Below, one piece after another: positions 2,925 through 61,106 of a stretch of 64,000 nucleotides of DNA. How positions within the stretch are numbered: the stretch's first letter is position 1; every line of letters begins with the position of its first letter. Under the pieces are notes generated by a model. The model made no database searches, was not told the origin of the DNA, and saw only the letters and a program-made list of their open reading frames with translations. The stretch lies in the NCBI GenBank assembly GCA_017616775.1, contig JAFZXM010000043.1, positions 32,571 through 96,570 on the forward strand. Reading direction: 5' to 3'. Made by a program: the position numbers and the translations under genes. The DNA comes from Bacteroidales bacterium. GTDB taxonomy: Bacteria; Bacteroidota; Bacteroidia; Bacteroidales; WCHB1-69.

Positions 2925-3009
2925 TTTTTCCACATTGTTCCGGGAGTGCTTTTTTTGAAAGAAAGCAATATTTTTTTTCAAATCGTGTGTAAGATAAGAT
3001 AAAAAATGT

Positions 3010-3017
3010 TACCTTTG
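3010..3017 (+). promoter_or_regulatory. Bacteroidota -7 promoter box (TACCTTTG) for tRNA-Leu
   Basis: Matches TAnnTTTG; its last base is 11 nt upstream of the first base of the tRNA. Confidence 0.5.
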
Positions 3018-3027
3018 CCGCATCAAA

Positions 3028-3109
3028 GCCCGAGTGGCGGAATTGGTAGACGCGCACGTTTCAGGTGCGTGTTCCGTAAGGAGTGCAGGTTCAAGTCCTG
3101 TCTCGGGCA
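3028..3109 (+). tRNA. tRNA-Leu (anticodon CAG), class II with long variable arm
   Basis: Folded by hand. Acceptor GCCCGAG/CTCGGGC. Anticodon stem CACGT/GCGTG with loop TTCAGGT. Long variable arm. T-arm GCAGG-TTCAAGT-CCTGT. Discriminator A. Confidence 0.9.
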
Positions 3110-3114
3110 CCGAA

Positions 3115-3155
3115 AGGATTTTGTGATTCCATAGTATGGAATTATGCAAAATCCT
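3115..3155 (+). terminator. nested hairpin immediately 3' of tRNA-Leu
   Basis: Outer arms AGGATTTTG (3115-3123) and CAAAATCCT (3147-3155). Inner arms ATTCCATA (3126-3133) and TATGGAAT (3135-3142). There is no strong T-run. Confidence 0.4.
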
Positions 3156-3245
3156 TTAATTGTATTGGTTCAGATAATTTCCCCACCGCAGCATGCAAAA
3201 TCGGAACTATAAACGGATGTGAAAATTTTTTTTCTGAATTCCTGC

Positions 3246-3303
3246 ATTCAACAAACAAATGCCCCGATTTTTATTCGTAAAATGACTATCTTTGCAAAAT
3301 GAA
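3246..3303 (+). repeat. cassette head copy A (58 nt identical to 5424-5481), containing TATCTTTG (3287-3294) and the ATG at 3299
   Basis: Direct comparison of the two stretches: attcaacaaacaaatgccccgatttttattcgtaaaatgactatctttgcaaaatgaaa. Confidence 0.9.
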
Positions 3304-3715
3304 AATTAGGAGAATGAACAGCGGCGAAATATTCTATTACCACCCCAACCACTTGGGAAATACTGCTTTTGTAACTGACCAAAACCAGAGCATAACACAA
3401 GGCTTCCTTTATGCTCCCTTTGGCGAAATTACAACGGAGTACAATATTAACTTTGGCAATAATACAATACCCAAGTATTCTTTTAATGCAAAGGAATTGG
3501 ACGAAGAAACCGGCATGTACTACTACGAAGCACGTTACTACAAACCGCCGGTGTTCACGAGTAGAGACCCACTTTTTGAGAAGTATTTCTGGATGACCCC
3601 GTATGCCTATTGCGCAAACAATCCGGTGAAGTACGTGGATCCGACGGGGGTGGAATTTGTTGATAATGAAGGTAATCGCGTCAGGGTTCGTGTGTTAAAA
3701 AATGGAAATATATAA
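3299..3715 (+). CDS. orphan Rhs/YD-repeat core C-terminal fragment ending at the DPxG junction
   Basis: YHPNHLGN, YYYEARYYKPPVFTSRDP and NNPVKYVDPTG are the conserved Rhs-associated core motifs. There is no upstream YD-repeat body. The ORF ends at a TAA that is in frame with the next ORF. Confidence 0.8.
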   Translation: MKIRRMNSGEIFYYHPNHLGNTAFVTDQNQSITQGFLYAPFGEITTEYNINFGNNTIPKYSFNAKELDEETGMYYYEARYYKPPVFTSRDPLFEKYFWMTPYAYCANNPVKYVDPTGVEFVDNEGNRVRVRVLKNGNI

Positions 3716-3745
3716 TATAAATTTTCACGTAAAACATCAGAAACC

Positions 3746-4273
3746 GTGAAATCTGATTTTATTTCAAATTACAGTGAATCCCTTTCTGATTTATCCAAAA
3801 CGAAGCATGGTAGAAAATGTATTAGCTTTTTAAATAGATGTTACACAAGTGTTTATATAAATCCAACTAATGAGAACGGAAATCAAAACTCATTAGTAAT
3901 CCCTTCCTGTGATGAAAACAACTATGTGAAAATGAATAATGGAGTTTGTGAAAGTGTTGAAATTAAGCCATTTATGGAGTCCATTCGTAACAAAGCAAAT
4001 CGAGATAATGTAGACGTTGATGAAATATTAGGTGCTACACTTATAGTTGAAGCAGGTCACTTGAAAAAAACTCAAATTTCCAAAGATTATAATGAGAAGT
4101 TATCAGAAGAAAGCAAATATTATAGCTTGTATAACCAGTATGTTGATTATAGATACAATTATAGAAAAGAATTAAAACAGCCAATAAATGAAACAGTGTT
4201 TAACAATTCTTCTCAAATCCATCCTAAACTTAATCGTATTAATTCAAAAAGAAAAATGCAATATGTCAAATAA
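3746..4273 (+). CDS. probable continuation of the cassette-1 toxin C-terminal domain (unknown family)
   Basis: It is in the same reading frame as 3299-3715, separated only by the TAA at 3713 and 10 sense codons. The tracked start is GTG and there is no nearby ATG. Its last codons overlap the start of the downstream lipoprotein gene. Confidence 0.5.
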   Translation: MKSDFISNYSESLSDLSKTKHGRKCISFLNRCYTSVYINPTNENGNQNSLVIPSCDENNYVKMNNGVCESVEIKPFMESIRNKANRDNVDVDEILGATLIVEAGHLKKTQISKDYNEKLSEESKYYSLYNQYVDYRYNYRKELKQPINETVFNNSSQIHPKLNRINSKRKMQYVK

Positions 4274-4700
4274 GAATTCAATGTTTGTTTTAATTTTATT
4301 TTTTATATGCATTCTTGGAGCATGTAAAACTAAGTCGCCACTAATAAAAAAAACTACTGATTATAACTATTCGTTTACGAACAATGACATTGCCTGTATA
4401 ATAACTTTTTTTTCTCAAGATACTTCTTATTTGTCTTTTGTAAATAAAGATAGTATTTATTTGACAAAAGACTCTTTAATTATACAATTTAATCAAGAAA
4501 AAAAATGTTTTTATAAAGATGGATTCACTATCTATAAGTTGTCATCTTATCACAAAACGTATACTAAATTTTATTATACTTATATGGGAAAAATCAGAGA
4601 AATTGAACGGATTATGAATGGAGAAGTGGTATCAAAAGGAATTATCAATAATGATACGATAAGAACTCAGGTATTTCAAGTGTCGGATCCTTTTTGGTGA
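4263..4700 (+). CDS. putative immunity lipoprotein for cassette 1
   Basis: The ATG at 4263 gives MSNKNSMFVLILFFICILGACKT (signal peptide plus lipobox). It overlaps the stop of the upstream toxin-like ORF (ATGTCAAATAA). The tracked upstream extension from 4188 has no signal peptide. Confidence 0.6.
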   Translation: MSNKNSMFVLILFFICILGACKTKSPLIKKTTDYNYSFTNNDIACIITFFSQDTSYLSFVNKDSIYLTKDSLIIQFNQEKKCFYKDGFTIYKLSSYHKTYTKFYYTYMGKIREIERIMNGEVVSKGIINNDTIRTQVFQVSDPFW

Positions 4701-4776
4701 TTTTAGAAAAGGTAAAATATAATGGTCACATAAATATGGGCAACAATTGTAAGTAAAAACAATGTATCTTTGCAAA

Positions 4777-5397
4777 ATGAAAAAATTTTTAATTTTTATT
4801 TTTTTTGTTTTAAGTGTTATTTCTGTAAAATCTCAAGAATTGTTTCCTGATGAAAGAGACAGTTTGCGATCTGTGGAAATAATGAAATATATATTTGAAA
4901 ATGAGAAAAGTATTAATATTGAAATGTGGAAACATTTCAAAGTGAAATTTAATTTAAAACAGGTAAATGTAAATCATTGTATTGATTTGACTGGACTCAA
5001 TTATATTCCTGATAAGTTCTGTAATGAATTGGCAAAAAAACATTTTCCGGAATATTTGGATAGTAATAGACAAATTAGGTTAGATTGTTACATTAGTCAA
5101 CTTGAAATTTCAAAAAATTTAGATGCTGAAGAATTGTATAAAAGTTATCTAAAAAGGTTGGATGAATTAATAGGTAATATAGATGCAGATTTGAGGGAGA
5201 ATAATCCCTTAGATTCCTCCCAAACATATTTTCCCATTGCATTTGTCTCATCATATTATGAAATTAAAGAAGCATATATTAAAATAAAAGGAGGAAGATA
5301 CCAAACGCCAGGAGGAAATGGCATTCATTTTTATTTTCTTTTTGATGATGAGGACAAAATAAAGGATGTTTTTAGCTTCATTACACTTGGATTATAA
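4777..5397 (+). CDS. secreted hypothetical protein (possible second immunity or orphan immunity protein)
   Basis: The ATG at 4777 gives MKKFLIFIFFVLSVISVKSQ (signal peptide). It is preceded by TATCTTTG (4765-4772) with the same 4-nt spacing as the Rhs cassette heads. Confidence 0.6.
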   Translation: MKKFLIFIFFVLSVISVKSQELFPDERDSLRSVEIMKYIFENEKSINIEMWKHFKVKFNLKQVNVNHCIDLTGLNYIPDKFCNELAKKHFPEYLDSNRQIRLDCYISQLEISKNLDAEELYKSYLKRLDELIGNIDADLRENNPLDSSQTYFPIAFVSSYYEIKEAYIKIKGGRYQTPGGNGIHFYFLFDDEDKIKDVFSFITLGL

Positions 5398-5423
5398 ATG
5401 TTTGACCAAAATTAAATCCCTAA

Positions 5424-5481
5424 ATTCAACAAACAAATGCCCCGATTTTTATTCGTAAAATGACTATCTTTGCAAAATGAA
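5424..5481 (+). repeat. cassette head copy B (58 nt identical to 3246-3303), containing TATCTTTG (5465-5472) and the ATG at 5477
   Basis: Direct comparison with copy A. Similarity continues, with mismatches, into the coding region. Confidence 0.9.
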
Positions 5482-6355
5482 ACATAGGAGAATAACCAGC
5501 GGCGAAATATTCTATTTTGGCAATAATGAAATACCCAAATATTCTTTTAATGCCAAAGAATTAGACGAAGAAACCGGCATGTATTACTATGAAGCACGGT
5601 ATTATGCTCCGCCGGTGTTTACAAGCCGCGACCCTTTGTTTGAGAAGTATCCGACGTTTTCACCCTACATTTATTGTTATAACAATCCTCTGCGATTTAT
5701 TGACCCTACAGGGTTATATGGTTACGAAAATATTGAAGAAGGGCAAAGTTATAAAGTTGTTGCTGTTTTTAACAGTAAATATCAGGATACAAAAGCATTA
5801 TGGAAAGAGATTAGTGAATGGAGAAAAGCAGGCTGCGACCAAATTGCCAATGAACTTCAAGCAGACTACGATGCAATTACGTCTGCCCGACAAGCGGGAA
5901 TGCCAATGATGTTTGTTGATAATATGGAAGATTATGCTAACGCTATGAACGATTTCAGTGCAATGGGTTCAAGTACTGATATCTATACGTTGAATAGTCA
6001 TGGAGGTAATGGCGAATTTAACATTGGTGAAACAAAGATTGATAAGTATACTAATTTTAGCACCTTAAAGAATGGGTTAAGTGATAAAACAGTGTTTATT
6101 AATGCTTGTAACGTTACGTGGGGTAAAGAGGGGCAAGACCTAATACGACATTTTTCTCAACAAACATCTTCAACAGTCATTGGTAAAAATAGTGAAATTA
6201 GTAGTTCGTATTGGTATAACGGGGGTATTGGACTTAATCTATCAGGTAATCGTTTTCAGATGTCCACAAATGGGTCAGATGCAACAGAAATTCGCAATGT
6301 AAGGATTAACCAAAATAAAGGCATTATATGGAAAGGTTCAGGTGGCTATCATTAA
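5477..6355 (+). CDS. orphan Rhs core remnant fused to a ~210-aa C-terminal toxin domain (candidate His/Cys hydrolase)
   Basis: YYYEARYYAPPVFTSRDP and NNPLRFIDPTGL are Rhs core motifs. The downstream domain has alternating strand and helix segments, with IYTLNSHGG and TVFINACN motifs. Confidence 0.8.
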   Translation: MKHRRITSGEIFYFGNNEIPKYSFNAKELDEETGMYYYEARYYAPPVFTSRDPLFEKYPTFSPYIYCYNNPLRFIDPTGLYGYENIEEGQSYKVVAVFNSKYQDTKALWKEISEWRKAGCDQIANELQADYDAITSARQAGMPMMFVDNMEDYANAMNDFSAMGSSTDIYTLNSHGGNGEFNIGETKIDKYTNFSTLKNGLSDKTVFINACNVTWGKEGQDLIRHFSQQTSSTVIGKNSEISSSYWYNGGIGLNLSGNRFQMSTNGSDATEIRNVRINQNKGIIWKGSGGYH

Positions 6356-7062
6356 AAAAATTAAATATAATAAAAATTGTCTATTTATTGATAATATTAT
6401 CTGTATTGTCAATTCAAGTGAAAGGACAGAACGATTATGTTAAATATCAGACTTTCGATGAGTATAAGCTGGAAGGTATTGGTGAAAAGAAAATAAAACG
6501 TCCTTATGTACTTGTCAAAAGAGAAAATGACACTATATTTGTAGTTAAGTCAAATGACAGAAAAAACGTAATAAAATATGTAAATCGAGGCGATTATTGG
6601 CATACAATACTACAAATAGAAGAAAGATGGTCTTTTTGGGAAACTTTTTGTGAAAAATTTATTTATAATGATACGGTTGTTGAATATAAATATAAATATT
6701 GGCATGACTATGGCTATTTAATAGACAGTTCTAAAAGAAGCAATATAAGAATCAACAAAGGTATTTATGTACATACTAAAAGTATTTGTATAAATTTATC
6801 TATTCAAGGTGATGATATTAAAAACCTCGACAATCCTTACAATGAAATAAAGCAGTTTGTAGTAAATTATAAAGAAATTTTTCCTTTATATTTATCTTCA
6901 CCCGGGTATCAACCACGATGGTATTCTATATATGAAAAGCATATAGCGGGGAACCGTCTTTCTATTTATGAAATGAAAGGTGTTAATAGAGAATTTACTG
7001 CATCAAAAAAAATGAATAGTTTAGGAGAATTTGATAACAAAGGGATGCTGTGGTGGTGGTAA
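6328..7062 (+). CDS. putative immunity protein for cassette 2 (secreted)
   Basis: It overlaps the toxin ORF end by 28 nt. It has an N-terminal hydrophobic signal-like segment (IVYLLIILSVLSIQVKGQ). I recognise no family. Confidence 0.6.
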   Translation: MERFRWLSLKKLNIIKIVYLLIILSVLSIQVKGQNDYVKYQTFDEYKLEGIGEKKIKRPYVLVKRENDTIFVVKSNDRKNVIKYVNRGDYWHTILQIEERWSFWETFCEKFIYNDTVVEYKYKYWHDYGYLIDSSKRSNIRINKGIYVHTKSICINLSIQGDDIKNLDNPYNEIKQFVVNYKEIFPLYLSSPGYQPRWYSIYEKHIAGNRLSIYEMKGVNREFTASKKMNSLGEFDNKGMLWWW

Positions 7063-7087
7063 TAAAATACAAGTTTAACCTATAATA

Positions 7088-7119
7088 AAAATTACTATCT
7101 TTGCAAAATGAAAAATAGG
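7088..7119 (+). repeat. cassette head copy C (32-nt core, 2 mismatches to copy A 3279-3310)
   Basis: aaaattactatctttgcaaaatgaaaaatagg versus aaaatgactatctttgcaaaatgaaaattagg. TATCTTTG is at 7096-7103 and the ATG at 7108. Confidence 0.8.
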
Positions 7120-7326
7120 CAGACAAGCAACGACGCTCTAATAAATTACACCTACGACCTTGTTGGCAATGTTACCCAAGTAGCAAGCACTTGCCCGTGG
7201 CTGCCAAACCAAAGTTTTATAGAAAACTTTAGCTATGACAGTACAGACCAACTTGTTTCCGCCAACGAGGCACAAAGCTACCAGTTGGCTGTAAATTATG
7301 GCAACTGGGGAAAGGTAATGCAATAA
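7108..7326 (+). pseudogene. isolated YD-repeat (Rhs body) fragment, 72 codons
   Basis: Contains YD-repeat signatures INYTYDLVGNVTQV and FSYDSTDQLVSA. There is no N-terminal domain, no core and no toxin. Confidence 0.6.
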
Positions 7327-7497
7327 GATATTTTGTAAACATCCCCCCCTTTTTAAGAAAGTCCCAATTAATTATAAATCAAGACTATTAACATATCAAC
7401 AGGTTAGCTCTTCCGGTAAAGTGTATTTAAAAATGTAATATATTTAGTTGATAAATAACATTATCATATTCATTTTTAAATACTTTTGGTCCTATTA

Positions 7498-8787
7498 TTA
7501 TTTAAACAAAGCTTCCGCTTGTTTGATAATAGTTTGTTCCGGTTCATTCGGGTTGAGAACGAGGTCGGGTTTGGCATAGACCACTTTGTGGTGGTTTTTG
7601 GTGAGGTTTTCACCGCCGCCTGTAATATTCAGCATGATAACATCTTTGTGTTTGACAGTTCCGTCTTCCACAGCATGTGCCAGACTTGCCACAGCTACAG
7701 CGGCGGCAGGATTGATGTCGATGCCTTCCAGATATTGGAAAGCTGCCGACCAATAGTCAATTTCTCTATTGTCAATTTTGTAGATGTCGCCACGGGTGTC
7801 GGTCAATGCATCAAAGAGTCCGCCTGCCGGAGAATAAGGCGGTTTGCGGTTGGATAAGACTTTTGCTTGTATGATAGCTGCCTGATAGCGGGCTTCTTCT
7901 GCAGAAAGCGATACCAAATTTCTTTGTTGAGCCTTCCATGAATCATACATGATGGTGAAAGGTGCGTTTTGGGAGGGCAGCAATTTCATTTTATGTTTTC
8001 CGAAGCGGCCGTCATCTATCAAACGGAGGTTGTTTTCCCAAGCGGCGATGGTGCCGGTGCCGGAACCGATGGCTTGGAAGTAGGCGTCGGGAATGCGGCC
8101 TATGGTTTCCACCGCATTCAATAGGGTGGTGCCCATGCCGTCACGTCTGGCGATATTTTTTGCACCGCCTTCGGCCATAAACATATCCGATTTGCAGGCG
8201 ATGTCTCCCAATGCGATTGCATCGTAATAGTCGGCACCATGAGGTGCGGCAATGATTTTTACGCAATCTTTCAGGCGTTTGTGAAACCACAAGGCATTCA
8301 TATTGTCTTCCGGTACCGAAAGCAGCAAGGGAATGTTGTTGTCGGAGCAAACTTTGGCGAATGCCCTGGCGGTGTTGCCGGCAGATGCCACTACCAGCAC
8401 TTTCTTGTTGTCGTGCGGTAAGCGGGCACAAACAGAATAGGCTTCTGTCTCTTTAAAAGAGCATGTTTCCAAGGCAGCCCCCCTTGCAGGGAAAAATCCT
8501 GAAAATGTAATATATAAATTGTTTAATTTCAATTGTTTGGCCAAACCTTTACTTTTGAAAGTAACCGGTGTTTGCGAATGCTTTAATATCCTTTTTATTG
8601 GCAGCCAATTGGCATATCTGTAAAAACCGCCAAGGTCCTCTCTGGGTTCAAATTTTTTGTTGGCATAAACAGCTCTCACTAAAGCAGGTTGATCGTATTG
8701 AGGGTCGGACAGCAACCAACCTTCGTCTTCAAAAACACGGCCATTGCCGCAATTCATCAATTTGTAGGAAGTAGGTTTGAATACCAT
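7498..8787 (-). CDS. cysteate synthase-like PLP enzyme (threonine-synthase fold)
   Basis: The N-terminal pattern YKLMNCGNG...FYRYANWLPI and the PLP-lysine context CSFKETEA resemble the cysteate synthase family as I remember it. It lies next to an alpha-oxoamine synthase gene. Confidence 0.65.
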   Translation of the reverse strand: MVFKPTSYKLMNCGNGRVFEDEGWLLSDPQYDQPALVRAVYANKKFEPREDLGGFYRYANWLPIKRILKHSQTPVTFKSKGLAKQLKLNNLYITFSGFFPARGAALETCSFKETEAYSVCARLPHDNKKVLVVASAGNTARAFAKVCSDNNIPLLLSVPEDNMNALWFHKRLKDCVKIIAAPHGADYYDAIALGDIACKSDMFMAEGGAKNIARRDGMGTTLLNAVETIGRIPDAYFQAIGSGTGTIAAWENNLRLIDDGRFGKHKMKLLPSQNAPFTIMYDSWKAQQRNLVSLSAEEARYQAAIIQAKVLSNRKPPYSPAGGLFDALTDTRGDIYKIDNREIDYWSAAFQYLEGIDINPAAAVAVASLAHAVEDGTVKHKDVIMLNITGGGENLTKNHHKVVYAKPDLVLNPNEPEQTIIKQAEALFK

Positions 8788-12365: not shown

Positions 12366-12875
12366 TTATTGTATCAATTGTAAGTAAGTTGTGTCGTTCT
12401 GCATACGTATAATTCCTTGGTTAAATGTGTAATATAGCGAATAATTATTTAGGTCATTTGATGAAATATATACATTGTAAAGTGTATCGTTATCAATCAC
12501 CAAAGTGCGGGGAGAATAAGCATTAAAATCAAAATAATGGGAGTATGCAGTCTTATTCTTTGCGATGTAATAACAAATATCTAATTGTTTGTTGACTTTT
12601 AAATCCAAGAAGATGATTTGATTGTTGTCTATTGAATTTATTTCAATATGGCGTTTATATGAATCTCTTTCTTTGGAAATAGTATCGGTATTGACTATCC
12701 ATAGTATGGTGTCGTTGTTTTGGTCAATCATATTGAATTGCTGTCCTTTTTGATAAGGTACAACCGCCAAATCTTCATTACTGAATTTTTGTATTACAGT
12801 GGGTTCTATGTCAAAATAGTGACAAGATTGACACACCAATAACAGAATGACAGATAATGATATTATTTTTTTCAT
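12366..12875 (-). CDS. lipoprotein, unknown function (module A)
   Basis: Lipobox in MKKIISLSVILLLVCQSC. Paralog of 13834-14340. Confidence 0.7.
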   Translation of the reverse strand: MKKIISLSVILLLVCQSCHYFDIEPTVIQKFSNEDLAVVPYQKGQQFNMIDQNNDTILWIVNTDTISKERDSYKRHIEINSIDNNQIIFLDLKVNKQLDICYYIAKNKTAYSHYFDFNAYSPRTLVIDNDTLYNVYISSNDLNNYSLYYTFNQGIIRMQNDTTYLQLIQ

Positions 12876-12893
12876 GGTATATGTTTTTTTATG

Positions 12894-13598
12894 TTATAAT
12901 CTTATTCTAAAACCTGCACAAAACCAACCTTCCATTCCGGCTCCCAATTGTAAAAAGCCTGCGTATTGGTTGTTGCCTATTTCTATGCCTATAAGGGTGA
13001 GTTGATAGGCGAAAAATACACGCTGATTGTCGGGTGTGATTTCAATTCTTTCAGGTTGATAGTTCTTTATTCCCAATTGGCTGAATGAAACACCTATTCC
13101 TGCTTTGGAGTACATGGTTACCACTCTTTTGTTGAGCCAATTGATTTTGAGAGTGGGAAGCAGGGTGTGAGTGGTGAGATTGAGTTTACATGCCAATTCG
13201 TTATTATATACTTTTGTAATACGGGGCTCACATACATAATATATACCTACACCTATCACTTTGGTAATTCTATAGGAATATCCTATCTGGATAGCTCCAT
13301 AAGTATATCTTTCGTGATGTAATGAATAGAGATTAGGATCTATGCATCCAAAAAGAGGCAGGAATGTGTTAAGTTGAACGGAAGACAATATGCCGTAACC
13401 TATGGAAATTTGGTGGCGTTTGTCAAGTGTGTGACTTTTCCGGTCAGCGGCGGCGTCATATTCCATAGCCGGTTCCGTGGTTATGGTTGCCTCGGTTCTC
13501 ATCACGGTGTCGGTTTGTGCCCATGCGGAATCCATACAAGCTAAACCTGTCAACAAACTTGCTGCGATTGCCAGAAAATATTTATGTGTTGTATTCAT
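12894..13598 (-). CDS. small outer-membrane beta-barrel-like protein (module A)
   Basis: The start is moved to MNTTHKYFLAIAASLLTGLA...AQ (signal peptide), 16 nt after CAAAAATA (13614-13621), which is TAnnTTTG on the minus strand. It has alternating aromatic and Gly segments and the C-terminus GWFCAGFRIRL. Paralog of 14359-15081. Confidence 0.7.
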   Translation of the reverse strand: MNTTHKYFLAIAASLLTGLACMDSAWAQTDTVMRTEATITTEPAMEYDAAADRKSHTLDKRHQISIGYGILSSVQLNTFLPLFGCIDPNLYSLHHERYTYGAIQIGYSYRITKVIGVGIYYVCEPRITKVYNNELACKLNLTTHTLLPTLKINWLNKRVVTMYSKAGIGVSFSQLGIKNYQPERIEITPDNQRVFFAYQLTLIGIEIGNNQYAGFLQLGAGMEGWFCAGFRIRL

Positions 13599-13789
13599 GT
13601 GATAATTTTTTTGCAAAAATACAAAAAAATATATAGGAAATACCTTATATGGAAAAAAATAATTTGTGAACAGAAAATTCACCAAACAAGGACTGTAAAT
13701 GGATGTGAACCACGATATTCTGGTTTTGTCTCCGAAAATGGATAAACAGACCATCGGATAGAATATACACGTATTGCTCCGTGATTATG

Positions 13790-13826
13790 GAAAAAACAGC
13801 TTCCTGTATTGCAACAGGAATTGCTG
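13790..13826 (-). terminator. rho-independent terminator between duplicated modules
   Basis: The minus strand reads CAGCAATTCCTGT-tgcaat-ACAGGAAGCTG followed by TTTTTT. It lies directly after the stop of 13834-14340. Confidence 0.6.
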
Positions 13827-13833
13827 CTTGTGC

Positions 13834-14340
13834 TTAGGGAATGAGTTTTAGGTAGTTAATGTCTGTTTGAATGCGTATAATTCCTTGATTGATGGAATAT
13901 ATTATCTGCTTGTTCGGATCGTCTGAAGAAACATATACATTGTAAAGTGTGTCGTTGTCAATAACCAGTGTGCGGGGAGAGCTATTGTTTAATTCATAAT
14001 ATGCATACAATTGCATGTCCCCCAAATGGTAATATCTGATATGTAATTTTTTATTGGGACTTAAAATTATGTTGACCGAATGATTGTTATCCATAGAATT
14101 GATGTCAATAAGGCGGTCGTAGTTAGTTAAATGATTTTCGATGGTGTCGGTGTTGACTGTCCATAACAGGGTGTCGTTGTTTTGGTCGGTCATATAGAAT
14201 TGTTGTCCTTGAGTATAAGGTACGGTGGCCAAATCTTCTTCGCTGAGTTTTTGAATGACTTCGGGATATTCTTCCCACCAGTCATAGCAAGATGAACATA
14301 CAGCCATTAAAATGACGGATAATGCTAATATTTTTTTCAT
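13834..14340 (-). CDS. lipoprotein, unknown function (module B)
   Basis: Lipobox in MKKILALSVILMAVCSSC. Shares blocks with module A (SPRTLVIDNDTLYNVY, DQNNDT.LW.VNTDTI). Confidence 0.7.
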   Translation of the reverse strand: MKKILALSVILMAVCSSCYDWWEEYPEVIQKLSEEDLATVPYTQGQQFYMTDQNNDTLLWTVNTDTIENHLTNYDRLIDINSMDNNHSVNIILSPNKKLHIRYYHLGDMQLYAYYELNNSSPRTLVIDNDTLYNVYVSSDDPNKQIIYSINQGIIRIQTDINYLKLIP

Positions 14341-14358
14341 GGTAAATATCTTTTTATT

Positions 14359-15081
14359 TTATAATCTTATTCTAAAGCCTGCACAAAACCAGCCTTCCAT
14401 TCCGGCTCCCAATTGTAAATAGCCTGCGTATTGATTGTTGCCTATTTCTATGCCTGCAAGGGTGAATTGATAGGCGAAATATACGCGGTGTTGGGGGGGG
14501 GTTATTTCAAAATGGTCGGGTTGATAATTTTTGATACCGCATTGGTTGATACTTATGCCAAACCCTACTTTGGAATACATGGTCACCACTCTTTTGTTGA
14601 GCCAGTTGATTTTGAGAGTGGGAAGCAGGGTATGTGTGGTCCAATTGATTTTCCCTATCAATTGGTCATTGTACAATTTGACAATACGGGGGTCGCAAAC
14701 GTAATACAATCCCACACCTATCACTTTGGTGCATCTGAAAGTATAACCTATCTGTATGGCTCCGTAGCATTCCCCGTGATAGCGGTAAGCAGGTTCCGTT
14801 CCTATATATTCCATTAAATAAGGCATAATGACAGAACACTGACTCGGCGTTAATATGCCGTAACCTATGGAAATTTGGTGGCGTTTGTCAAGCGTGAAAC
14901 TCTTGGAGGAGGAGTCTGTAGCGGGCTCCGTGTTATAATCGGCCATGGAAACTTGAGCGTTGGACATTATTTTTTGAGCCTTCAAAATGGTGTCATTCTG
15001 TGCCCGTAAAGAATAGTTCCAACAGGATAGCATCAATATAACAGCTATCAATGGCAAACAATAATGATATTTTGTGTTCAT
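14359..15081 (-). CDS. small outer-membrane beta-barrel-like protein (module B)
   Basis: The start is chosen by analogy with paralog A (MNTKYHY). CAAAGGTA (15098-15105) supplies the -7 box. The C-terminal half is nearly identical to module A. Confidence 0.7.
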   Translation of the reverse strand: MNTKYHYCLPLIAVILMLSCWNYSLRAQNDTILKAQKIMSNAQVSMADYNTEPATDSSSKSFTLDKRHQISIGYGILTPSQCSVIMPYLMEYIGTEPAYRYHGECYGAIQIGYTFRCTKVIGVGLYYVCDPRIVKLYNDQLIGKINWTTHTLLPTLKINWLNKRVVTMYSKVGFGISINQCGIKNYQPDHFEITPPQHRVYFAYQFTLAGIEIGNNQYAGYLQLGAGMEGWFCAGFRIRL

Positions 15082-15369
15082 GTGCATATTTTTTTTGCAA
15101 AGGTATATAAAAAAAAGTGACGAATATCATTTTTGTTATAATAAAAAAAATAAAGAAATATAACAATCTTAAAATCAGGTATGTATTTTGGAACAGGGGA
15201 TTCCGGCTATATTTGTATCTGCCTGCGGCAGGCATTGGCATGTTTTGAATTTTGCACAAAACGAGCCGTGCCTTACAGACTTTTTTTTTCAGCTAAAAAG
15301 TTTTGTGTTGGGAAGGTGTGTCAATAGGAAAAACGGAATCCGGACAAGCGGGTGCAAACAGGGAAAGTG

Positions 15370-19984: not shown

Positions 19985-20056
19985 ATTAACGGAAAAAAAT
20001 CTGTTTTATTATATTTCCTTGTCAGGTATAATTGAAAAAATGCTATCTTTGCGCTC

Positions 20057-20677
20057 ATGCAGGAATACTCGTCAAAAATATTGGAAAATGCAATCAATCA
20101 AATAAGCAAATTGCCCGGTGTGGGTAAAAAAACAGCCGTGCGTTTGGCCTTGTATTTGTTGCGGCTTTCGTCCGAAGAGGTGCATGTGTTTACCGAGTCG
20201 ATAGAAACCTTGAAAAACAAAGTGTTCTTTTGCAAGGAATGTTTTAACATAGCAGATACGGAAATATGTGATATATGTGCCAATATTCAACGGGATAAAA
20301 GTCAGATTTGCGTGGTTCAGGATGTAAGGGATGTTATTGCCATAGAGAACACCGCCGCCTATAAAGGGGTGTATCATGTGCTCGGAGGGGTGATATCGCC
20401 CATGGACGGTATAGGGGTGAATGATTTGAATATTCAAGCTTTGTTCAACAGGTTGGAAGCCAATGATATAAAAGAGCTGATATTTGCCCTGCCCGCCACT
20501 ACAGAAGGGGATACCACAGCCTATTATATAAGCAAACATTTGAAAATCCGTTATCCCGAACTTGCCCTTACCTCCATAGCCAGGGGAGTTTCCGTAGGAA
20601 ACGATTTGGAAAATATAGACGAAATCACTTTGGCGCGTTCCATAGTGCACAGAGTGGAATTTGAAACGGCTTTTTAG
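20057..20677 (+). CDS. recR: recombination protein RecR
   Basis: Helix-hairpin-helix KLPGVGKKTAVRLA, Cys4 finger CKECFNIADTEICDIC and a Toprim region. TATCTTTG (20044-20051) ends 5 nt before the ATG. Confidence 0.95.
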   Translation: MQEYSSKILENAINQISKLPGVGKKTAVRLALYLLRLSSEEVHVFTESIETLKNKVFFCKECFNIADTEICDICANIQRDKSQICVVQDVRDVIAIENTAAYKGVYHVLGGVISPMDGIGVNDLNIQALFNRLEANDIKELIFALPATTEGDTTAYYISKHLKIRYPELALTSIARGVSVGNDLENIDEITLARSIVHRVEFETAF

Positions 20678-22112: not shown

Positions 22113-22624
22113 AATAATTTGCAAACAGGGCATATCTCCGGAGCTTTTTTGCCGAAGACAATATGTCCGCAATTGGAGCATTCCCAAATCATATCTTCGT
22201 CTTTGGAAAATACGACTCCGCCTTCCACATTGGCCAGCAATTTGCGGAAACGTTCTTCATGTGTTTTTTCTATCTTGCCAACCGATTCAAACAAATTGGC
22301 GATGTCGTCAAAACCTTCTTCGCGGGCTTCTTTGGCAAAGGTGGCATACATGTCGGTCCATTCATAGTGTTCTCCGTCTGCAGCGTCTTTCAAATTGTCA
22401 ACGGTGCCGGGGATTCCTCCGTCATGGAGCAGCTTGAACCATATTTTTGCATGCTCTTTTTCATTGTTGGCTGTTTCTTCAAACAAATTGCCGATTTGTA
22501 CAAAACCATCTTTTTTTGCCTTGGATGCATAGTAGGAATATTTGTTTCTTGCTTGCGATTCGCCGGCAAATGCCGTTGCTAAATTCTTTTCGGTTTTAGT
22601 TCCTTTTAACTTCATATTTTTCAA
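22109..22624 (-). CDS. rbr: rubrerythrin
   Basis: [27 protein letters not shown] and a C-terminal rubredoxin-like CSNC...CPVC. Confidence 0.9.
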
Positions 22625-22699
22625 TTTTAAATGTTATGTAACGATGTTGCTTGATATGATTATTTTGTAAAAATACAAAAAAAATGGGTTCCTTTTAAC

Positions 22700-22731
22700 G
22701 GATAAGTGAAAATTATGATTATTTTTGCAAA
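22700..22731 (+). repeat. promoter-bearing repeat R1 (GGATAAGTGAAAATTATGATTATTTTTGCAAA)
   Basis: Aligns with R2 (25050-25082) with 2 mismatches and 1 indel. Contains TATTTTTG at 22720-22727. Confidence 0.7.
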
Positions 22732-22793
22732 AAAATAGATTAACAAAAGTTGCATTTGTGACTTGAATGTGGCTTTAAATTTACCAGAAAGGA

Positions 22794-23390
22794 ATGGAGA
22801 AGATCATCAATAAAATATTCAGTTGCACTATTCTATTGTTATGTTGTCAGACAATAAGTATGGGACAAAATAAAGACAACATTCTTTTGAAATACTTTTT
22901 AGCAAAGGAGGAATTTAAAATAGATAATGACATTATGTTTCCAGAAGAAAGTATTCAAAATATAAATTATAGAAAAATTATACATTATGATACAGCATTC
23001 TCTAAATTAGATACTTTATTTGTTGTTTTGCCTGATAATAGAAAATATGAAAAACAAAGGGCGGATGTGGTGCATACGGTGGGTATTCCTAATTTAAAAA
23101 AAATATATTTACATTCTAACCTATTATTGAGATTTATGCAATCTCATGGAAAAAATATTAGTAAACAAACATTTGTTCAGTCTATACCCATTAAAACAGA
23201 TAAAAAAATAGTTGTATTAAAATGTAATTGGTATACTCTAGTATTTGAAAAGAAAAAAGGAAACAAGTATGAACTAAAAAATGTAGATCAAGAGGATTTT
23301 TTCGATTACGTAAAAAAAATGAAAGTATCCCAAAATATGGATAACAATTGTAACCAATTACCTTTGCAAAATGAAAAGGATAAACAATAG
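22794..23390 (+). CDS. secreted hypothetical protein (island gene 1)
   Basis: A 198-aa, strongly AT-rich ORF with signal-like CTILLLCCQTISMGQ. I recognise no family. Confidence 0.6.
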   Translation: MEKIINKIFSCTILLLCCQTISMGQNKDNILLKYFLAKEEFKIDNDIMFPEESIQNINYRKIIHYDTAFSKLDTLFVVLPDNRKYEKQRADVVHTVGIPNLKKIYLHSNLLLRFMQSHGKNISKQTFVQSIPIKTDKKIVVLKCNWYTLVFEKKKGNKYELKNVDQEDFFDYVKKMKVSQNMDNNCNQLPLQNEKDKQ

Positions 23391-23565
23391 CAACATGGTA
23401 CTAACGCTTAACGGACAGCAACAACCCATACAGCCTATGTTGCAAAGTGCTATGTTTTATCCTAACAGCTGTTTAACCGCCACATTTAAGTCACAAATAC
23501 AAATTTAATAAAAAAATATTGTTTGCAACAATTACAAAAAAATAGATTACTTTTTATAGGCGAAA

Positions 23566-23591
23566 GAAAAATTTGATTACTTTTGTAAATC
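23566..23591 (+). repeat. promoter-bearing repeat R3 (GAAAAATTTGATTACTTTTGTAAATC)
   Basis: Aligns with the 3' part of R2 (GAAAAATTATGATTACTTTTGCAAATC). TACTTTTG at 23578-23585 ends 52 nt before the ATG at 23637, the same spacing as R2 to sulP. Confidence 0.65.
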
Positions 23592-23636
23592 AATTTTAGA
23601 AAATTCTACAATAGGGAGTTTTGAAAAAAAATATTA

Positions 23637-23882
23637 ATGATAGTAAAATTAAAGAATGAATTGTATAATATGTTGAATAACAGCATAGCGAAGAAATATA
23701 TAAAGTCTATGACTATTCTTAATCCCAAATATGTGAAGGTTTGCATAGAAGAGGACGATATGTTAAATATAAGAGAATGGGCGTGTGATGAATTGCAAAA
23801 GAAAGGGTTTGATGAAACTTATGCTTTAACAAATGAAGGGGAGAACCTTGAAGAGCTAATAGATATATTTATCGGTAAATAA
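23637..23882 (+). CDS. hypothetical 81-aa acidic protein (island gene 2)
   Basis: An ORF with an ATG start; the next ORF begins 4-10 nt later. I recognise no family. Confidence 0.55.
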   Translation: MIVKLKNELYNMLNNSIAKKYIKSMTILNPKYVKVCIEEDDMLNIREWACDELQKKGFDETYALTNEGENLEELIDIFIGK

Positions 23883-23892
23883 TAATGTGAAA

Positions 23893-24495
23893 ATGAATAT
23901 TAATGAACACATAATGAACCCCAATATTCTTGCCCGACTGAAAAGACTGCTTTCCGAAATGTCATATTGGAGAAAGCCAAAACTGTTTCTTACAAACGCC
24001 CACATGTTTGAAGCAGACAATGACATCAATAAAAAGGCAGAATATTTTGAAAAGAATCGAATCTATATCAGTATCTATAGGACTATTAAGCATTATGCAA
24101 TTGTAACTGGTTATCGGACAGAATCCGGGATATGGCTTTCCGGAGAGCCTGTTTGGCTGCTTCCTTTGGATACTACATCAGAAGAACTTTCAAAGGTGAT
24201 ATCGGAAGGATTAAGTCATAGTCGTTCTGTTTCAGAGCCAGAGGAAGATATAATCCGAATGAGCAATAAGAACAATTTGTTGAAGCGGATGAAAGAAAGG
24301 TCGTGGAGCAGTTTGTATAGAAACTCCAAATGTTGTTCAGTTGATGTCGGAAACAATGAAATAATAATCACACCATGGATTTCTTCTGTTTCACAAAGAG
24401 GATTGGTGTCGGATTCGGATAGAGTTGTCAGATTGGCGTTTGTGGCATCGAATCACATGGATATTGCCCAAGCGGTTATGGATATGTTGCGTTGA
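23893..24495 (+). CDS. hypothetical 200-aa protein (island gene 3), possibly an immunity-type protein
   Basis: The tracked start at 23887 is GTG; the first ATG is at 23893 (MNINEH). It has no signal peptide and I recognise no family. Confidence 0.55.
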   Translation: MNINEHIMNPNILARLKRLLSEMSYWRKPKLFLTNAHMFEADNDINKKAEYFEKNRIYISIYRTIKHYAIVTGYRTESGIWLSGEPVWLLPLDTTSEELSKVISEGLSHSRSVSEPEEDIIRMSNKNNLLKRMKERSWSSLYRNSKCCSVDVGNNEIIITPWISSVSQRGLVSDSDRVVRLAFVASNHMDIAQAVMDMLR

Positions 24496-24591
24496 GCATG
24501 TATATAAACATATAATCTATAATTCACTTTTCCAAAAGCGTTTTTTTGTATCTTTGCATTTTGTAAATAAACAACATTAACAGAGTGTGAT

Positions 24592-25029
24592 ATGAAAAAG
24601 TCAGTCATCCTTTTGCTGTTGGCCTTTTTGGGGCTGGAGTGTTATTCCCAGCTTGTGCACTATGGTTATCCTACGGAGCGGGAAGCGCTTCCTAAGAAGT
24701 CCGTTGTGGTACTGAACATTCCGCATCATCAAATGACAGGTGGATATTATTTTATAAATGAAGAGCAGATAGACAGTCTGGTTGCTTTCCTTGTCATCAA
24801 TGACACCAACAGGTTGCGGATAGAAATCAATTGCTTTTATGGTCCCGCTGCTAATGAATATGCTTCAAAAAAATTGTGCATACGTTTAAAAGAAATTTTG
24901 GAGAAAAAAACGTCTTTGAAGAATTATTACATCGTCAGTAAAGGAGACAGCAATCCCGTTTATTGCAGTGAGGTGAAGGACAGCTATTACTTTGCACGGA
25001 ACACGCGGATGGAGATTTTTGTGGAATGA
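24592..25029 (+). CDS. secreted protein with degenerate OmpA-like C-terminal domain (island gene 4)
   Basis: Signal peptide MKKSVILLLLAFLGLECYSQ. The C-terminus GDSNPVY...ARNTRMEIFV resembles the OmpA-family G.S.P...NRRVEI pattern. Confidence 0.55.
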   Translation: MKKSVILLLLAFLGLECYSQLVHYGYPTEREALPKKSVVVLNIPHHQMTGGYYFINEEQIDSLVAFLVINDTNRLRIEINCFYGPAANEYASKKLCIRLKEILEKKTSLKNYYIVSKGDSNPVYCSEVKDSYYFARNTRMEIFVE

Positions 25030-25049
25030 AAAAATATCCATGGTGTAAT

Positions 25050-25082
25050 GGATAAATGAAAAATTATGATTACTTTTGCAAA
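25050..25082 (+). repeat. promoter-bearing repeat R2 (GGATAAATGAAAAATTATGATTACTTTTGCAAA)
   Basis: See R1 and R3. TACTTTTG at 25071-25078 ends 52 nt before the sulP ATG. Confidence 0.7.
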
Positions 25083-25129
25083 TCTATTCAATAGCATATT
25101 TAGAAGTAAATTAAATAATCAATATCAAC

Positions 25130-54177: not shown

Positions 54178-56211
54178 TTACATTTTGGTTACTTTGAATT
54201 CGGTTCTACGATTGAGTTGTCGGCCTTCAGGTGTTTTGTTGGAGGCTATAGGCTTGTCGAATCCGTAACCGGCGGAAGTAAGTCTGGAAGGATCTATACC
54301 TTTTTTAACCAAAGCATCCACTACGGCTTTAGCTCTTCCGAGAGATAGTTTTTTGTTATAAGCAGCACTGCCGACATTGTCGGTGTGACCGGAAATTTCT
54401 ATGCAGAGATTCGGATTTTCAGTCAATAATTTATAAATATTCTCTATCTCTATTAAAGAAGCAGCTCTCAAAGTGGTTTTATTATGGTCAAAGAAGATGT
54501 TCTTTAATACAATGGCTTTATTGACGGCAATACGTTCCATATAGATTACCTGAACTATTTCCTGGTCATCGGCTGTATCGGGTATGTTGAAGTTTTCGGA
54601 GTGGAAAAGGTAACCTGTAGCTTTTACGGCTACTGCGTAATTTTTACCCGAAGGCAGAGAAAGAAGATATTCTCCGCTGATGCTGTCGGAGGTGAAGGTT
54701 GCCAGCAGTTCGTTTTCTTCAACATCGGATAATTCTATGTTGGCATATACGGGTAATTTGGTATCGGCATCCAAAATCACACCTTTAACTATAGTGATTT
54801 TTTCTTTTTCTATGGCCATGGCTTGTGCGCTTTCTTCTTCAAGCAAATCAGAAGGCACTAACCAGTCATTGTCCATATACAAAGCAAAAAGTTTTTGAGG
54901 TCCCAGCAAGGTGATTTTATAAAGGTCTTGTCCGCCGTAGCCTTCAGCTTTATCGGATGCATAATAGGCAAATTTTCCGTCTTGTGTAACCACAAAATAT
55001 ACGTCGTCATCGGGAGTGTTGATGGGGTAACCTATATTTTGGGGAGCTGTCCATTGACCGTTTTCCATTTTTGAGAAGAAAATATCTATGCCGCCCATGG
55101 TTTCATGACCGTTGGAACAGAAATACAATGTGCCGTCAGGATGAGCATATACCGATATTTCATCATCTGCCGTATTGATAACAATGCCTAAGTTTTGTGC
55201 AGTACCCCATTTTCCTTTTGCATCGCGGACACTCATATATATGTCATGATTACCGTATCCGCCTTCTTTTTCGGAGCAAAAATAGAGAGTATCCCCTGTA
55301 ATGGAGTAGGAGGCTGATGTTTCATGGTAACGGGTGTTGATTTTATTGCTCATCTTTTTGGGCTTTTGGAATTTTCCGTTTTTCCATGCGGATTCATACA
55401 AGTCGCCTCCGTTGGTGGGTTGGTACACTATAACATTGTTTCCGTCTTTGGAAATAGCTTGAACGGCCACATGCTTTTTATTGCACAATGCCAATACACG
55501 GACAGGCGCTTCAAAGTCACCTTTGTCATTAATCTGGCTTTTGTACACATTTTCATAATATTTTCCGTCGTCAGCCATTTTGATTTTTTTACCTTCTCTG
55601 CGGGAAGTGAAATATATGGAAGAGTTGTCCATGGTGATAACAGGTCCGTATTCGTCAAAATCACCGTTGACAACATTGCCCAAGTTGTCTATAAAGCAGT
55701 TGTATTCATATCGAATCATATTTTTTCCTCTTTCGCATTCGGCTATGCGTTTGGTCGCCATGTCTTTTTCTTTGGCCGATGTGGCGCTGTTGGCAGCATA
55801 GGCACGGTACAAGGCAATGGCGGAATCGAATTCCATACGGGATTGATAGGCGCCTGCAGTATATAATAATACTTCATAATTGATTTGAGGATTAAGTTTA
55901 TAGGCGGTTTCACCATATCTGTAGGCTTTTTGCGTATTACCGGATTCATAGTAGCATTTGGCTATTTTGTAATTCAATTCGGCGTTGTTGGGGTTGAATT
56001 GTTGTGCTTGCAAATAGTAATTGAGGGCATATGTATATTCTATTCCGCTTAATGCATCGTTGAATATTTTATTGCCGGACTTGATGTTGGAAAGAGCGGT
56101 TTTCAAGCCGTTTTTGTCAGTAGGGAAATTTGCTTGTGTGAATTCCACATTTTGAGCAATAGTACTGATAGTGATTATATTAGCGATTATAATGTATAAT
56201 ATCTTTTTCAT
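54178..56211 (-). CDS. OmpA family protein with N-terminal TPR and TolB-like (PD40) beta-propeller repeats
   Basis: Signal peptide, TPR-like N-terminus and repeated DG..YF.S motifs. The C-terminal OmpA domain has ISGHTDNVGSAAYNKKLSLGRA...NRRTEF. Confidence 0.85.
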   Translation of the reverse strand: MKKILYIIIANIITISTIAQNVEFTQANFPTDKNGLKTALSNIKSGNKIFNDALSGIEYTYALNYYLQAQQFNPNNAELNYKIAKCYYESGNTQKAYRYGETAYKLNPQINYEVLLYTAGAYQSRMEFDSAIALYRAYAANSATSAKEKDMATKRIAECERGKNMIRYEYNCFIDNLGNVVNGDFDEYGPVITMDNSSIYFTSRREGKKIKMADDGKYYENVYKSQINDKGDFEAPVRVLALCNKKHVAVQAISKDGNNVIVYQPTNGGDLYESAWKNGKFQKPKKMSNKINTRYHETSASYSITGDTLYFCSEKEGGYGNHDIYMSVRDAKGKWGTAQNLGIVINTADDEISVYAHPDGTLYFCSNGHETMGGIDIFFSKMENGQWTAPQNIGYPINTPDDDVYFVVTQDGKFAYYASDKAEGYGGQDLYKITLLGPQKLFALYMDNDWLVPSDLLEEESAQAMAIEKEKITIVKGVILDADTKLPVYANIELSDVEENELLATFTSDSISGEYLLSLPSGKNYAVAVKATGYLFHSENFNIPDTADDQEIVQVIYMERIAVNKAIVLKNIFFDHNKTTLRAASLIEIENIYKLLTENPNLCIEISGHTDNVGSAAYNKKLSLGRAKAVVDALVKKGIDPSRLTSAGYGFDKPIASNKTPEGRQLNRRTEFKVTKM

Positions 56212-56230
56212 TGTAGTGTGCTTTTAAGGA

Positions 56231-57286: not shown

Positions 57287-57300
57287 AATGTATTAAATTA

Positions 57301-58818: not shown

Positions 58819-58831
58819 TTTTTGTCGGTTG

Positions 58832-61102: not shown

Positions 61103-61106
61103 ATCA

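Follow-up and report, generated by a model that had tools for sequence, protein, structure and literature searches.

Orphan toxin modules are usually regarded as silent spares that become relevant only after recombining into a main rhs gene. Integrons comprise IntI, an attI site and attC sites with imperfect inverted repeats, and their cassettes share one Pc promoter. In Enterobacteriaceae, orphan modules of the rhs-CT/rhsI and cdiA-CT/cdiI types are found directly downstream of a full-length rhs gene; as a rule they have no signals for translation initiation, and they are transcribed together with the main gene (PMC3150448). For Rhs toxins of Salmonella, both main and orphan, a P2 promoter and start codons inside the gene have been described (Starsta et al. 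2020, PMC7043789), and type II toxin–antitoxin behaviour with selfish retention has been proposed for them (PMC7043789). Among Bacteroidales, the rAID-1 clusters (for acquired interbacterial defence, associated with a recombinase) have as their defining features a tyrosine recombinase, short low-GC genes in one orientation and repetitive, integron-reminiscent intergenic motifs (bioRxiv 10.1101/471110; PMC12247911). Here we describe a strain-variable store of orphan Rhs toxin and immunity cassettes in a 64,000-nt stretch (hereafter, the window) of contig JAFZXM010000043.1 from the Bacteroidales assembly GCA_017616775.1, in which short repeated sequences, the heads, each combine a predicted promoter with a start codon.

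The host is an uncultured gut or rumen Bacteroidales bacterium that belongs to the UBA1205 species or is a very close relative. An orphan Rhs array is in itself of a known kind; the predicted leaderless start module on its cassettes is undescribed, and full-text literature searches yielded no description of leaderless or promoter-bearing heads on Rhs orphans. We consider it probable that every cassette forms a self-sufficient leaderless expression unit, with a head that doubles as a shared recombination patch. The structural and evolutionary part of this picture is more secure than the whole, and its biological purpose less so.

The islet and its repeated heads

The islet occupies 3.2–7.4 kb of the window and is low in GC (25–38%, compared with 42–50% in the flanks). 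It lies between tRNA-Leu(CAG) (3028–3111, + strand; predicted by ARAGORN and matched to Rfam RF00005 at 51 bits), its left landmark, and a housekeeping gene for a pyridoxal-phosphate (PLP) enzyme, with ABC-transporter genes as its upstream neighbours. The first head begins 135 nt after the tRNA gene. All islet open reading frames (ORFs) and heads are on the + strand. Among the ORFs are two with an Rhs core and a toxin (C is intact and A is interrupted by one nonsense codon), immunity-like ORFs for exported proteins, and D, a YD-repeat stub. Four Rhs-homologous ORFs, all short, were found in the 64 kb, with no full-length rhs in the window; among the scanned window ORFs of at least 150 amino acids there were no full-length rhs, type VI secretion system (T6SS) or recombinase genes, and no Phage_integrase match. 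These results agree with the first-pass annotation, which had described an orphan Rhs array beside tRNA-Leu with exported or lipoprotein ORFs after the toxins. Its assignment of an Rhs core to the ORFs is likewise supported by profile matches to TIGR03696 (Rhs_assc_core) in A (E 5.6e-17) and C (E 4.7e-16), both scoring above the curated cut-off and both containing ...NNP(V/L)(K/R)(Y/F)(V/I)DPTG.

The 18-mer TATCTTTGCAAAATGAAA occurs exactly at 3287, 4765, 5465 and 7096, and a fifth copy with one mismatch (TACCTTTG...) lies at 23359; the five matches observed compare with 0.04 expected from shuffled sequences. Around the first and third copies, 3237–3338 and 5415–5516 are 93% identical across 102 nt, and 3246–3303 equals 5424–5481 exactly (58 nt). 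In outline a head is about 50 bp long: an A-tract and a sigma-ABfr -7 box (TAHHTTTG) are followed, after a 4-nt spacer, by an ATG and about nine conserved codons. Residue numbers below refer to a full-length 2415-aa Rhs protein from a related metagenome-assembled genome (MAG). Head copy 1 (type-1, 3246–3338) has a 41-nt upstream module, the -7 box TATCTTTG at 3287–3294, the spacer CAAA, the ATG at 3299 and 13 codons (MKIRRMNSGEIFY), and is joined in cassette A (3299–3715) to the Rhs core from about residue 2267 (YYHPNHLGN ... DPTG). Copy 3 (type-1, 5424–5516; box 5465–5472, ATG 5477, 13 codons, MKHRRITSGEIFY) is a direct repeat of 3246–3338 and opens cassette C (5477–6355), in which the core begins at about residue 2311. 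Copy 2 (4739–4784; box 4765–4772, ATG 4777) precedes B (4777–5397), a non-Rhs secreted ORF with the signal peptide MKKFLIFIFFVLSVISVKSQ, whereas copy 4 (7084–7122; box 7096–7103, ATG 7108, five codons) opens D (7108–7326), a 72-aa stub without a toxin domain and 81% identical to residues 1990–2052. The fifth head (box 23359, ATG 23371) is joined to a 45-aa Rhs stub at about residue 2155.

At all five heads the box, TA(T/C)CTTTG, ends exactly 4 nt ahead of the ORF-opening ATG, and the start reads ATGAAA. Earlier coordinates for the repeats and heads all hold, and the spacing previously noted at four sites extends to the one at 23359, which had escaped notice. In Flavobacterium johnsoniae the -7 element spans -12 to -5, 4–5 nt from the transcription start site (TSS), and Bacteroidetes do not use Shine–Dalgarno (SD) sequences (PMC6847099). 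Given the 4-nt spacing, this published geometry places the predicted TSS on the A of the ATG, and the heads would therefore yield leaderless mRNAs. Such mRNAs are rare in Bacteroides, in which 5' untranslated regions shorter than 10 nt make up 3.7% (PMC7366714). The predicted transcripts of all five heads have their first 10 nt or more unpaired, and folding of these predicted 5' ends is no better than that of shuffled sequences. An SD-like AGGAG within the head peptide was dismissed because it lies downstream of the ATG and Bacteroidetes make no use of SD sequences (PMC6847099); a scan for sigma-70 promoters and terminators was uninformative for Bacteroidetes. Elsewhere in the window, recR is the sole ordinary annotated gene with a leaderless-type start, carrying TATCTTTG 5 nt before its ATG (20044–20059).

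The specificity of the head depends on how much of it is considered. Among the matches listed for TATCTTTGCAAAATGAAA in metagenome contigs, which come from at least 120 loci, Rhs fragments are opened at 2 of 121 sites, and the other sites with real ORFs include mnmA, nadD, ksgA, fmt, transposases and others. The 18–20-nt core is thus generic in Bacteroidota, as a predicted leaderless promoter and start. The 41-nt upstream part of the 58-mer, in contrast, was found only in the window, in locus L204 (from this strain), in L205 and, with three mismatches, in L005, a water-buffalo rumen MAG, and the wider head (about -25 to +27) is recognizable as a specific, lineage-wide module. The concern that the head might be a common promoter unrelated to Rhs is thus justified for the 20-nt core and not for the 58-mer or the wider head. 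An exact 59-mer search of GTDB representative genomes returned no match, a result uninformative on commonness because the source strain is not a representative.

Independent evolution of an ordinary Bacteroidota promoter near the start of each cassette, the shared sequence being simply the consensus, would fit the wide occurrence of TATCTTTGCAAAATGAAA ahead of unrelated genes (119 of 121 sites among the matches listed) and the box 5 nt from the recR start. Yet identity among heads exceeds a consensus: 58 nt are exact in the window, identity to L005 is 90%, and both the A-tract and the head-peptide codons are conserved. Moreover, all five box–N4–ATG sites of the window that open an ORF of at least 30 aa are confined to two islets, and convergence is accordingly very improbable.

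Heads across related loci and as cassette junctions

A core-alignment search of GTDB representative genomes gave 78 related loci, nearly all from uncultured Bacteroidales MAGs, many of them labelled rumen or reticulum, and often with many loci per genome. The islets occupy many unrelated chromosomal sites, scattered among housekeeping genes. Among 117 Rhs fragments, counted as Rhs-homologous ORFs not running off a contig start, 35 have a perfect box exactly 4 nt from an in-frame ATG, a further 13 have a box with a 13–38-nt leader, and several more have decayed boxes. Background box density in these loci is 0.62 per kb, and box–N4–ATG sites are in frame rather than out of frame with Rhs by 35:2, both exceptions being frameshifted copies. 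Head junctions fall at no fewer than nine reference positions (about 1823, 1990, 2105, 2155, 2170, 2228, 2256, 2267 and 2311), and the head-opened Rhs ORFs span 30 to 785 aa. Each window junction, that is, those of A, C, D and the ORF at 23371, belongs to a recurrent class. The earlier suggestion of a portable promoter/start module gains from the published 4-nt spacing and from these 35 fragments in at least nine junction classes, although transcription from the heads is a prediction from sequence. The earlier description of C as a core lacking about 40 codons was right as to the shorter core; an explanation of C as a head with a private 38-codon deletion was rejected, since the same junction class (MEIRRINNGKIFYFGN...) occurs in several other genomes.

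Downstream of the ATG, about nine codons show partial conservation (MKHRQTSNG, MEIRRINNG) and look Rhs-derived, as suggested by comparison of the head peptides MKHRQATKTTH/YHY and MEIRRINNE/IITLYNYD with native Rhs SQHRTKTTL/YHY and SEIATSNGA/LINYTYD, respectively. Full-length Rhs relatives in these genomes range from more than 2400 to more than 3600 aa. The absence of any full-length gene, suggested by a homologue search in which the core gave only proteins of 69–203 aa, was overturned by the genome scan that found the relatives of more than 2400 aa. Two further arrangements were observed among the related loci. Scrambled cassettes (L008 4161–4406, L019 2298–2597 and L025 3116–3412) carry a head and a 30-aa core piece (..GKIFSFGNDVIPKYSFNAKELDEET, about residue 2311) upstream of an Rhs body from about residue 1831, reversing the normal order. 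A leadered head family, TTGACTACCTTTGCACTTTCAAATCAACCAC-ATG, with the box 18–22 nt before the ATG, occurs at several Rhs positions in L026, L031, L045 and L058 (e.g. L026 6489, L045 4707).

Conservation of the heads bears on whether they still function. They could be non-functional relics of a single ancestral start that duplication and recombination copied along with cassettes whose fragments are silent, decaying pseudogenes: A is cut by a nonsense codon, the ORFs of D and at 23371 amount to short stubs, degenerate heads (TATCTTCG, TTTCTTTG, TATCTTTTG) are present in related loci, and classical orphan modules lack initiation signals and are untranslated (PMC3150448). Decay of this kind is difficult to reconcile with a perfect -7 box and exact 4-nt spacing kept in 35 cassettes from many genomes, where the upstream DNA has fully diverged, or with the 35:2 in-frame ratio. 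The 58-nt upstream segment is also 100% identical between its copies, against 83–84% for the adjoining coding core, and the non-Rhs secreted gene B is set precisely at a head ATG. We therefore regard relic status as unlikely, and favour heads that are still active as starts.

For the junction analysis, 43 heads were anchored at the ATG and their pairwise identity was compared upstream and downstream, with a threshold of at least 85%. Five pairs reached the threshold upstream, none of which is similar downstream; twelve reached it downstream, and only one of these is similar upstream. Identity in the downstream-matching pairs starts sharply at about -25, at the A-tract and box, whereas in the upstream-matching pairs it stops between +1 and about +50. 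Individual mosaics follow the same pattern: the head at L008:4161 equals L009 upstream (100%) and L019 downstream (100%). Similarly, window 3335–4783 is 90% identical to L006 through toxin A, its putative immunity gene immA, intergenic DNA and the head, and this similarity ends at ATGAAAA (4783), past which the window has B and L006 has a 587-aa Rhs fragment.

Strains also differ at one and the same chromosomal site. The PLP-enzyme protein adjoining the islet is unchanged on 12 contigs. L204, from an independent 82-kb scaffold, equals the window base for base over 21.3 kb, and a Logan contig covers head C, toxin C and the start of its putative immunity gene, immC. In L205 the flanks are 96–97% identical and the only cassette has a type-1 head followed by MKHRRITSGEIFYYHPNHLGN and the full core (a 330-aa version of the cassette C protein), then toxin C, immC and D. 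The window-specific 2178 nt (toxin A ... B) missing there are bracketed in the window by two direct head copies. In L206, which is UBA1205 (DBXT01000062.1), the flank is 98.6% identical and shared sequence begins only at 7123, just past head 4, as does the homology of the islet to L208. At the L206 site there are a 194-aa D counterpart (D'), which reaches further 5', and an immunity gene unlike that of the window; the distal end of the islet has a toxin with an Ntox21 domain, a 190-aa ORF and a fragment of an IS3-family (rve) transposase. The D junction in the window has the microhomology ACAA(G/A)CAACG. Because different cassette sets occupy the same site in different strains, with their junctions at heads, the site is a hot spot of cassette gain and loss. 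Together, the mosaic structure and the strain polymorphism of these sequences show the head to be the junction at which cassettes recombine, as the first-pass annotation had proposed in its alternative to a portable start.

An assembly artefact, in which a multicopy family was collapsed or mis-joined, has to be considered, as the loci used for comparison lie on short contigs from MAGs or metagenomes, many of which end inside arrays. It is scarcely credible here: the window arrangement is reproduced in the 21.3 kb of L204 and partly in the Logan contig, and mis-assembly would not create in-frame fusions with a fixed 4-nt spacing.

The concentration of breakpoints at heads also raises the question of a dedicated enzyme. 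In a rAID- or integron-like system, a XerD-type tyrosine recombinase encoded elsewhere would use the head as its site, and promoter activity would be secondary. The definition of rAID-1 outlined above, the clustering of breakpoints and the many unrelated chromosomal sites of the islets are all compatible with this proposal, as is L060 (5340–13621), in which a Phage_integrase/XerD-like gene (E 1.5e-45) lies directly upstream of four Rhs-fragment/immunity cassettes. However, no recombinase was detected among the scanned window ORFs, and the other longer related loci showed no recombinase-like ORF beside their arrays by inspection of ORF maps and N-termini, profile tests covering L060 and L081. 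The conserved positions of the head are those that a promoter and start need (A-tract, TAHHTTTG, ATG), while the spacer varies (caaa, cagn, caac, taaa); conserved inverted arms are not present at the heads, and breakpoints are spread from -25 to +50 (about 75 nt), with microhomology, rather than fixed at one point. The heads of L060 itself differ, being leadered and belonging to other families, e.g. ...AAGGCTAAAGCAAAGCG-ATG MKNYxVxN, which is common to L049 and L067. This makes a recombinase-driven system an unlikely explanation, and homologous or microhomology-based exchange at the heads is preferred. The layout of L060 is in itself rAID-like, yet retains toxin fragments.

A related reading gives the head a more active role, as the attachment site of a start-codon-anchored cassette capture: toxin fragments, whether incoming or displaced, and immunity genes would be joined in frame, by a mechanism dedicated to this, to the expression signal that the roughly 50-bp leaderless promoter/ATG module provides. 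The mechanism could then be a rAID-type XerD recombinase acting in trans, integron-like but with the recombination point at the translation start. We give this little credence; if true, it would explain how rAID-type arrays are built.

Other kinds of mobile or switching element were considered and rejected. A tRNA-linked integrative island was discarded, since the tRNA 3' end is unrepeated (no second copy of its last 23 nt in the window with up to three mismatches allowed) and no integrase was found in the scanned window ORFs. An invertible or shufflon-type switch was set aside because inverted head copies are absent from the window and related loci, the Rhs-type heads all being co-oriented. 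An inverted-repeat search over 3000–7600 revealed no repeated hairpin at cassette borders, and the tRNA was the only structured RNA found in the islet. A long inverted repeat at 3112–3160 (AAAGGATTTTGTGATTCCATA ... TATGGAATTATGCAAAATCCTTT), directly after tRNA-Leu and ahead of the first head, is probably the tRNA terminator.

Cassette contents and other variable loci

Cassette A is 79% identical to reference residues 2267–2377. The first-pass annotation had counted it among its Rhs-core-plus-toxin ORFs; its Rhs core stands, but its end at 3715 is not natural, as an in-frame TAA at 3713 is the one stop in 325 codons of a frame that then stays open to 4273. The remainder (3716–4273), in the same frame past the nonsense codon, is a pseudogenized C-terminal toxin domain, 92.6% identical to the uninterrupted C-terminus of a 774-aa ORF in L006 (UBA1205), where the homologue is intact and reads CAA in place of the TAA. 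Overlapping the toxin A stop, immA (4263–4700) is a lipoprotein-type ORF (signal ...ILGAC), 91.7% identical to the ORF 3' of the same toxin in L006, and its position suggests an immunity role. B may be an orphan immunity gene; its homologues elsewhere (72–87% identity) are lone genes without this head.

In cassette C the core is followed by an intact 210-aa C-terminal domain (DUF4347, PF14252, E 8e-8), and the protein is identical in two other assemblies. immC (6328–7062), a presumed immunity gene encoding a signal-peptide ORF, overlaps the toxin C stop, and its position after toxin C homologues is conserved in L060 and L079 (69% and 54% identity). The pairing of toxin with immunity gene (A with immA, C with immC) is maintained in L006, L060 and L079, and toxin stops overlap immunity starts or lie within about 25 nt of them, both in the window and in most of the related cassettes. 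Toxin A, immA, B and immC gave no match to any Pfam or NCBIfam family, and DUF4347 is the sole Pfam match of the toxin C domain (5714–6352), for which a PDB sequence search gave nothing below E 0.1. Its AlphaFold model (pLDDT 71.5) has no Foldseek PDB match at E of 0.001 or less, with caspases appearing only as insignificant matches (E about 0.2). A His (NSHG) and a Cys (ACN) are invariant in seven homologues and the fold is alpha/beta, so that a clan-CD-like, caspase-like protease with a His/Cys dyad may be guessed at from the model. D matches PF05593 weakly (E 0.0087, below the cut-off), and a complete YD shell is not encoded in the window.

The second strain-specific islet (22116–25108), about 3 kb long and likewise low in GC, contains a rubrerythrin gene on the - strand, four immunity-like ORFs and the fifth head with its Rhs stub. 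It is missing in L206 and L207, in which the flanking cupin and SulP genes lie about 10 nt apart. One of the four ORFs (23887–24495) belongs to the CdiI family (PF07262, E 1e-8), and for this gene and two of the other three, homologues occur 3' of Rhs toxins in related loci. The islet is flanked by AT-rich 11-mers that resemble each other, AATTAAA(A)TAAT.

Three other regions of the window were recorded. At 12366–15087 (- strand) a gene pair occurs in tandem duplicate at about 73% nucleotide identity, composed of a 168-aa lipoprotein-like ORF and a 242/286-aa ORF that ends in ...GWFCAGFRIRL and is possibly an outer-membrane barrel; all four ORFs are without a Pfam family. The 5.5-kb segment 13425–18892, which carries pyrG (CTP synthase) and a gene with a GATase domain, has no counterpart at this position in L206 or L207 and is present in L204 and, as far as its contig end (window 14213), in L205, a strain-level rearrangement without toxin cassettes. 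Finally, a - strand cluster at 54178–62159 encodes the membrane protein PorP/SprF of the type IX secretion system (T9SS; 61107–62159), TPR proteins, a GHKL ATPase and an OmpA/PD40 protein. Apart from PorP/SprF the window has no secretion-related gene, and the earlier statement that the window has no secretion gene needs correction in this respect; no link between PorP/SprF and the Rhs islets was seen.

Proposed mechanism and relation to described systems

Each cassette consists of a fragment of a very large Rhs gene, truncated at its 5' end and welded in frame to a head. With the predicted leaderless start, one short DNA patch would supply transcription and translation starts together. We infer that a few primary fusions of promoter and ATG to the Rhs body arose and then spread by recombination; shorter forms, which keep the head and drop Rhs body, were likely produced by in-frame deletion or unequal recombination at N-G/YD-repeat microhomologies. 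As the sole sequence common to all cassettes upstream of the Rhs core, the head would serve as the homology or microhomology patch for swap, insertion and deletion. Its function is most likely to keep the overlapping downstream immunity gene expressed, and toxin–antitoxin-like retention, by analogy with Salmonella, may be an added benefit.

Several observations weigh against this picture. A perfect box is missing in 69 of the 117 related Rhs fragments, indicating a head that is common in the lineage and not universal. The evidence for a leaderless start is box spacing, and the toxin and immunity roles are predicted. Within the window a whole toxin is encoded by C only, the nonsense codon of A, 550 nt before immA, breaks the coupling, and D has no downstream gene, so that at least some heads sit on dead stubs. 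As to recombination, the difference between L205 and the window may be an insertion or a deletion, and more than one event is required to place the C-type head peptide on an A-type core, as seen in L205. The loci used for comparison are mostly metagenome-assembled and some mosaics could be chimeras of assembly, yet the window arrangement recurs in independent assemblies.

If the proposal of autonomous units is correct, Rhs fragments, or at least their immunity genes, are expressed on their own, which bears on broad immunity repertoires and on Rhs toxins as addiction modules outside Enterobacteriaceae. A leaderless start, for which some 25 bp ahead of the ATG are enough, would be a very compact portable expression module, and an instance of natural promoter and start portability in a phylum without SD use. 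Breakpoints concentrated at the head would offer a testable handle on array assembly, and the model predicts N-terminal peptides that begin at the head start, e.g. MKHRRITSGEIFYFGNNEIPK.

The cassettes resemble the enterobacterial orphans of the rhs-CT/rhsI and cdiA-CT/cdiI types (Poole et al. 2011, PMC3150448; Koskiniemi et al. 2014, PMC3967940) in being 5'-truncated Rhs pieces with a core and a variable C-terminal toxin, each followed by a small gene of the cognate-immunity type, in one orientation, strain-variable and shuffled by recombination in shared core. Unlike them, they lie in 64 kb without a full-length rhs, a separate promoter is predicted for every fragment, which also has an in-frame ATG, and the islets are scattered. 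With the Salmonella system they share the expression, predicted here, of an Rhs C-terminal toxin and its immunity gene apart from the delivery part. The Salmonella promoter, however, lies inside the core coding sequence, is of sigma-70 type and has a leader, a ribosome-binding site and a weak CTG/ATG start, whereas the present signal is external and non-coding, predicted to be of sigma-ABfr type and leaderless, and joined at many positions.

Likeness to integron arrays lies in the promoter-dependent expression, again predicted here, of co-oriented cassettes and in the repeated border sequences. IntI, attI and attC-like repeats were not found, each cassette has a predicted promoter of its own instead of a shared Pc, and the junction coincides with the translation start. 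The resemblance to rAID-1 noted in the first-pass annotation applies to the arrangement, in a Bacteroidales host, of low-GC, co-oriented short genes with repeated intergenic motifs and orphan immunity genes (Ross et al. 2019, bioRxiv 10.1101/471110; PMC12247911), the second islet here holding a CdiI-family gene: the islet beside tRNA-Leu has at least two co-oriented genes below 41% GC, and its heads repeat. It does not extend to the defining XerD-family tyrosine recombinase, which was not found in the scanned window ORFs, nor to gene content, since rAID genes are mainly immunity genes and toxin fragments are retained here.

In their TAHHTTTG box, A/T-rich tract and spacing to the predicted TSS (4–5 nt in the published cases), the heads match what has been described for Bacteroidetes sigma-ABfr promoters and for leaderless mRNAs (Baez et al. 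2019, PMC6847099; Ryan et al. 2020, PMC7366714), a minority of Bacteroidetes genes, transposases included, being leaderless (PMC6847099; PMC7366714). Whereas the cases described in those studies are scattered single genes, at the present loci one predicted leaderless start appears to have been propagated across a family of toxin fragments.

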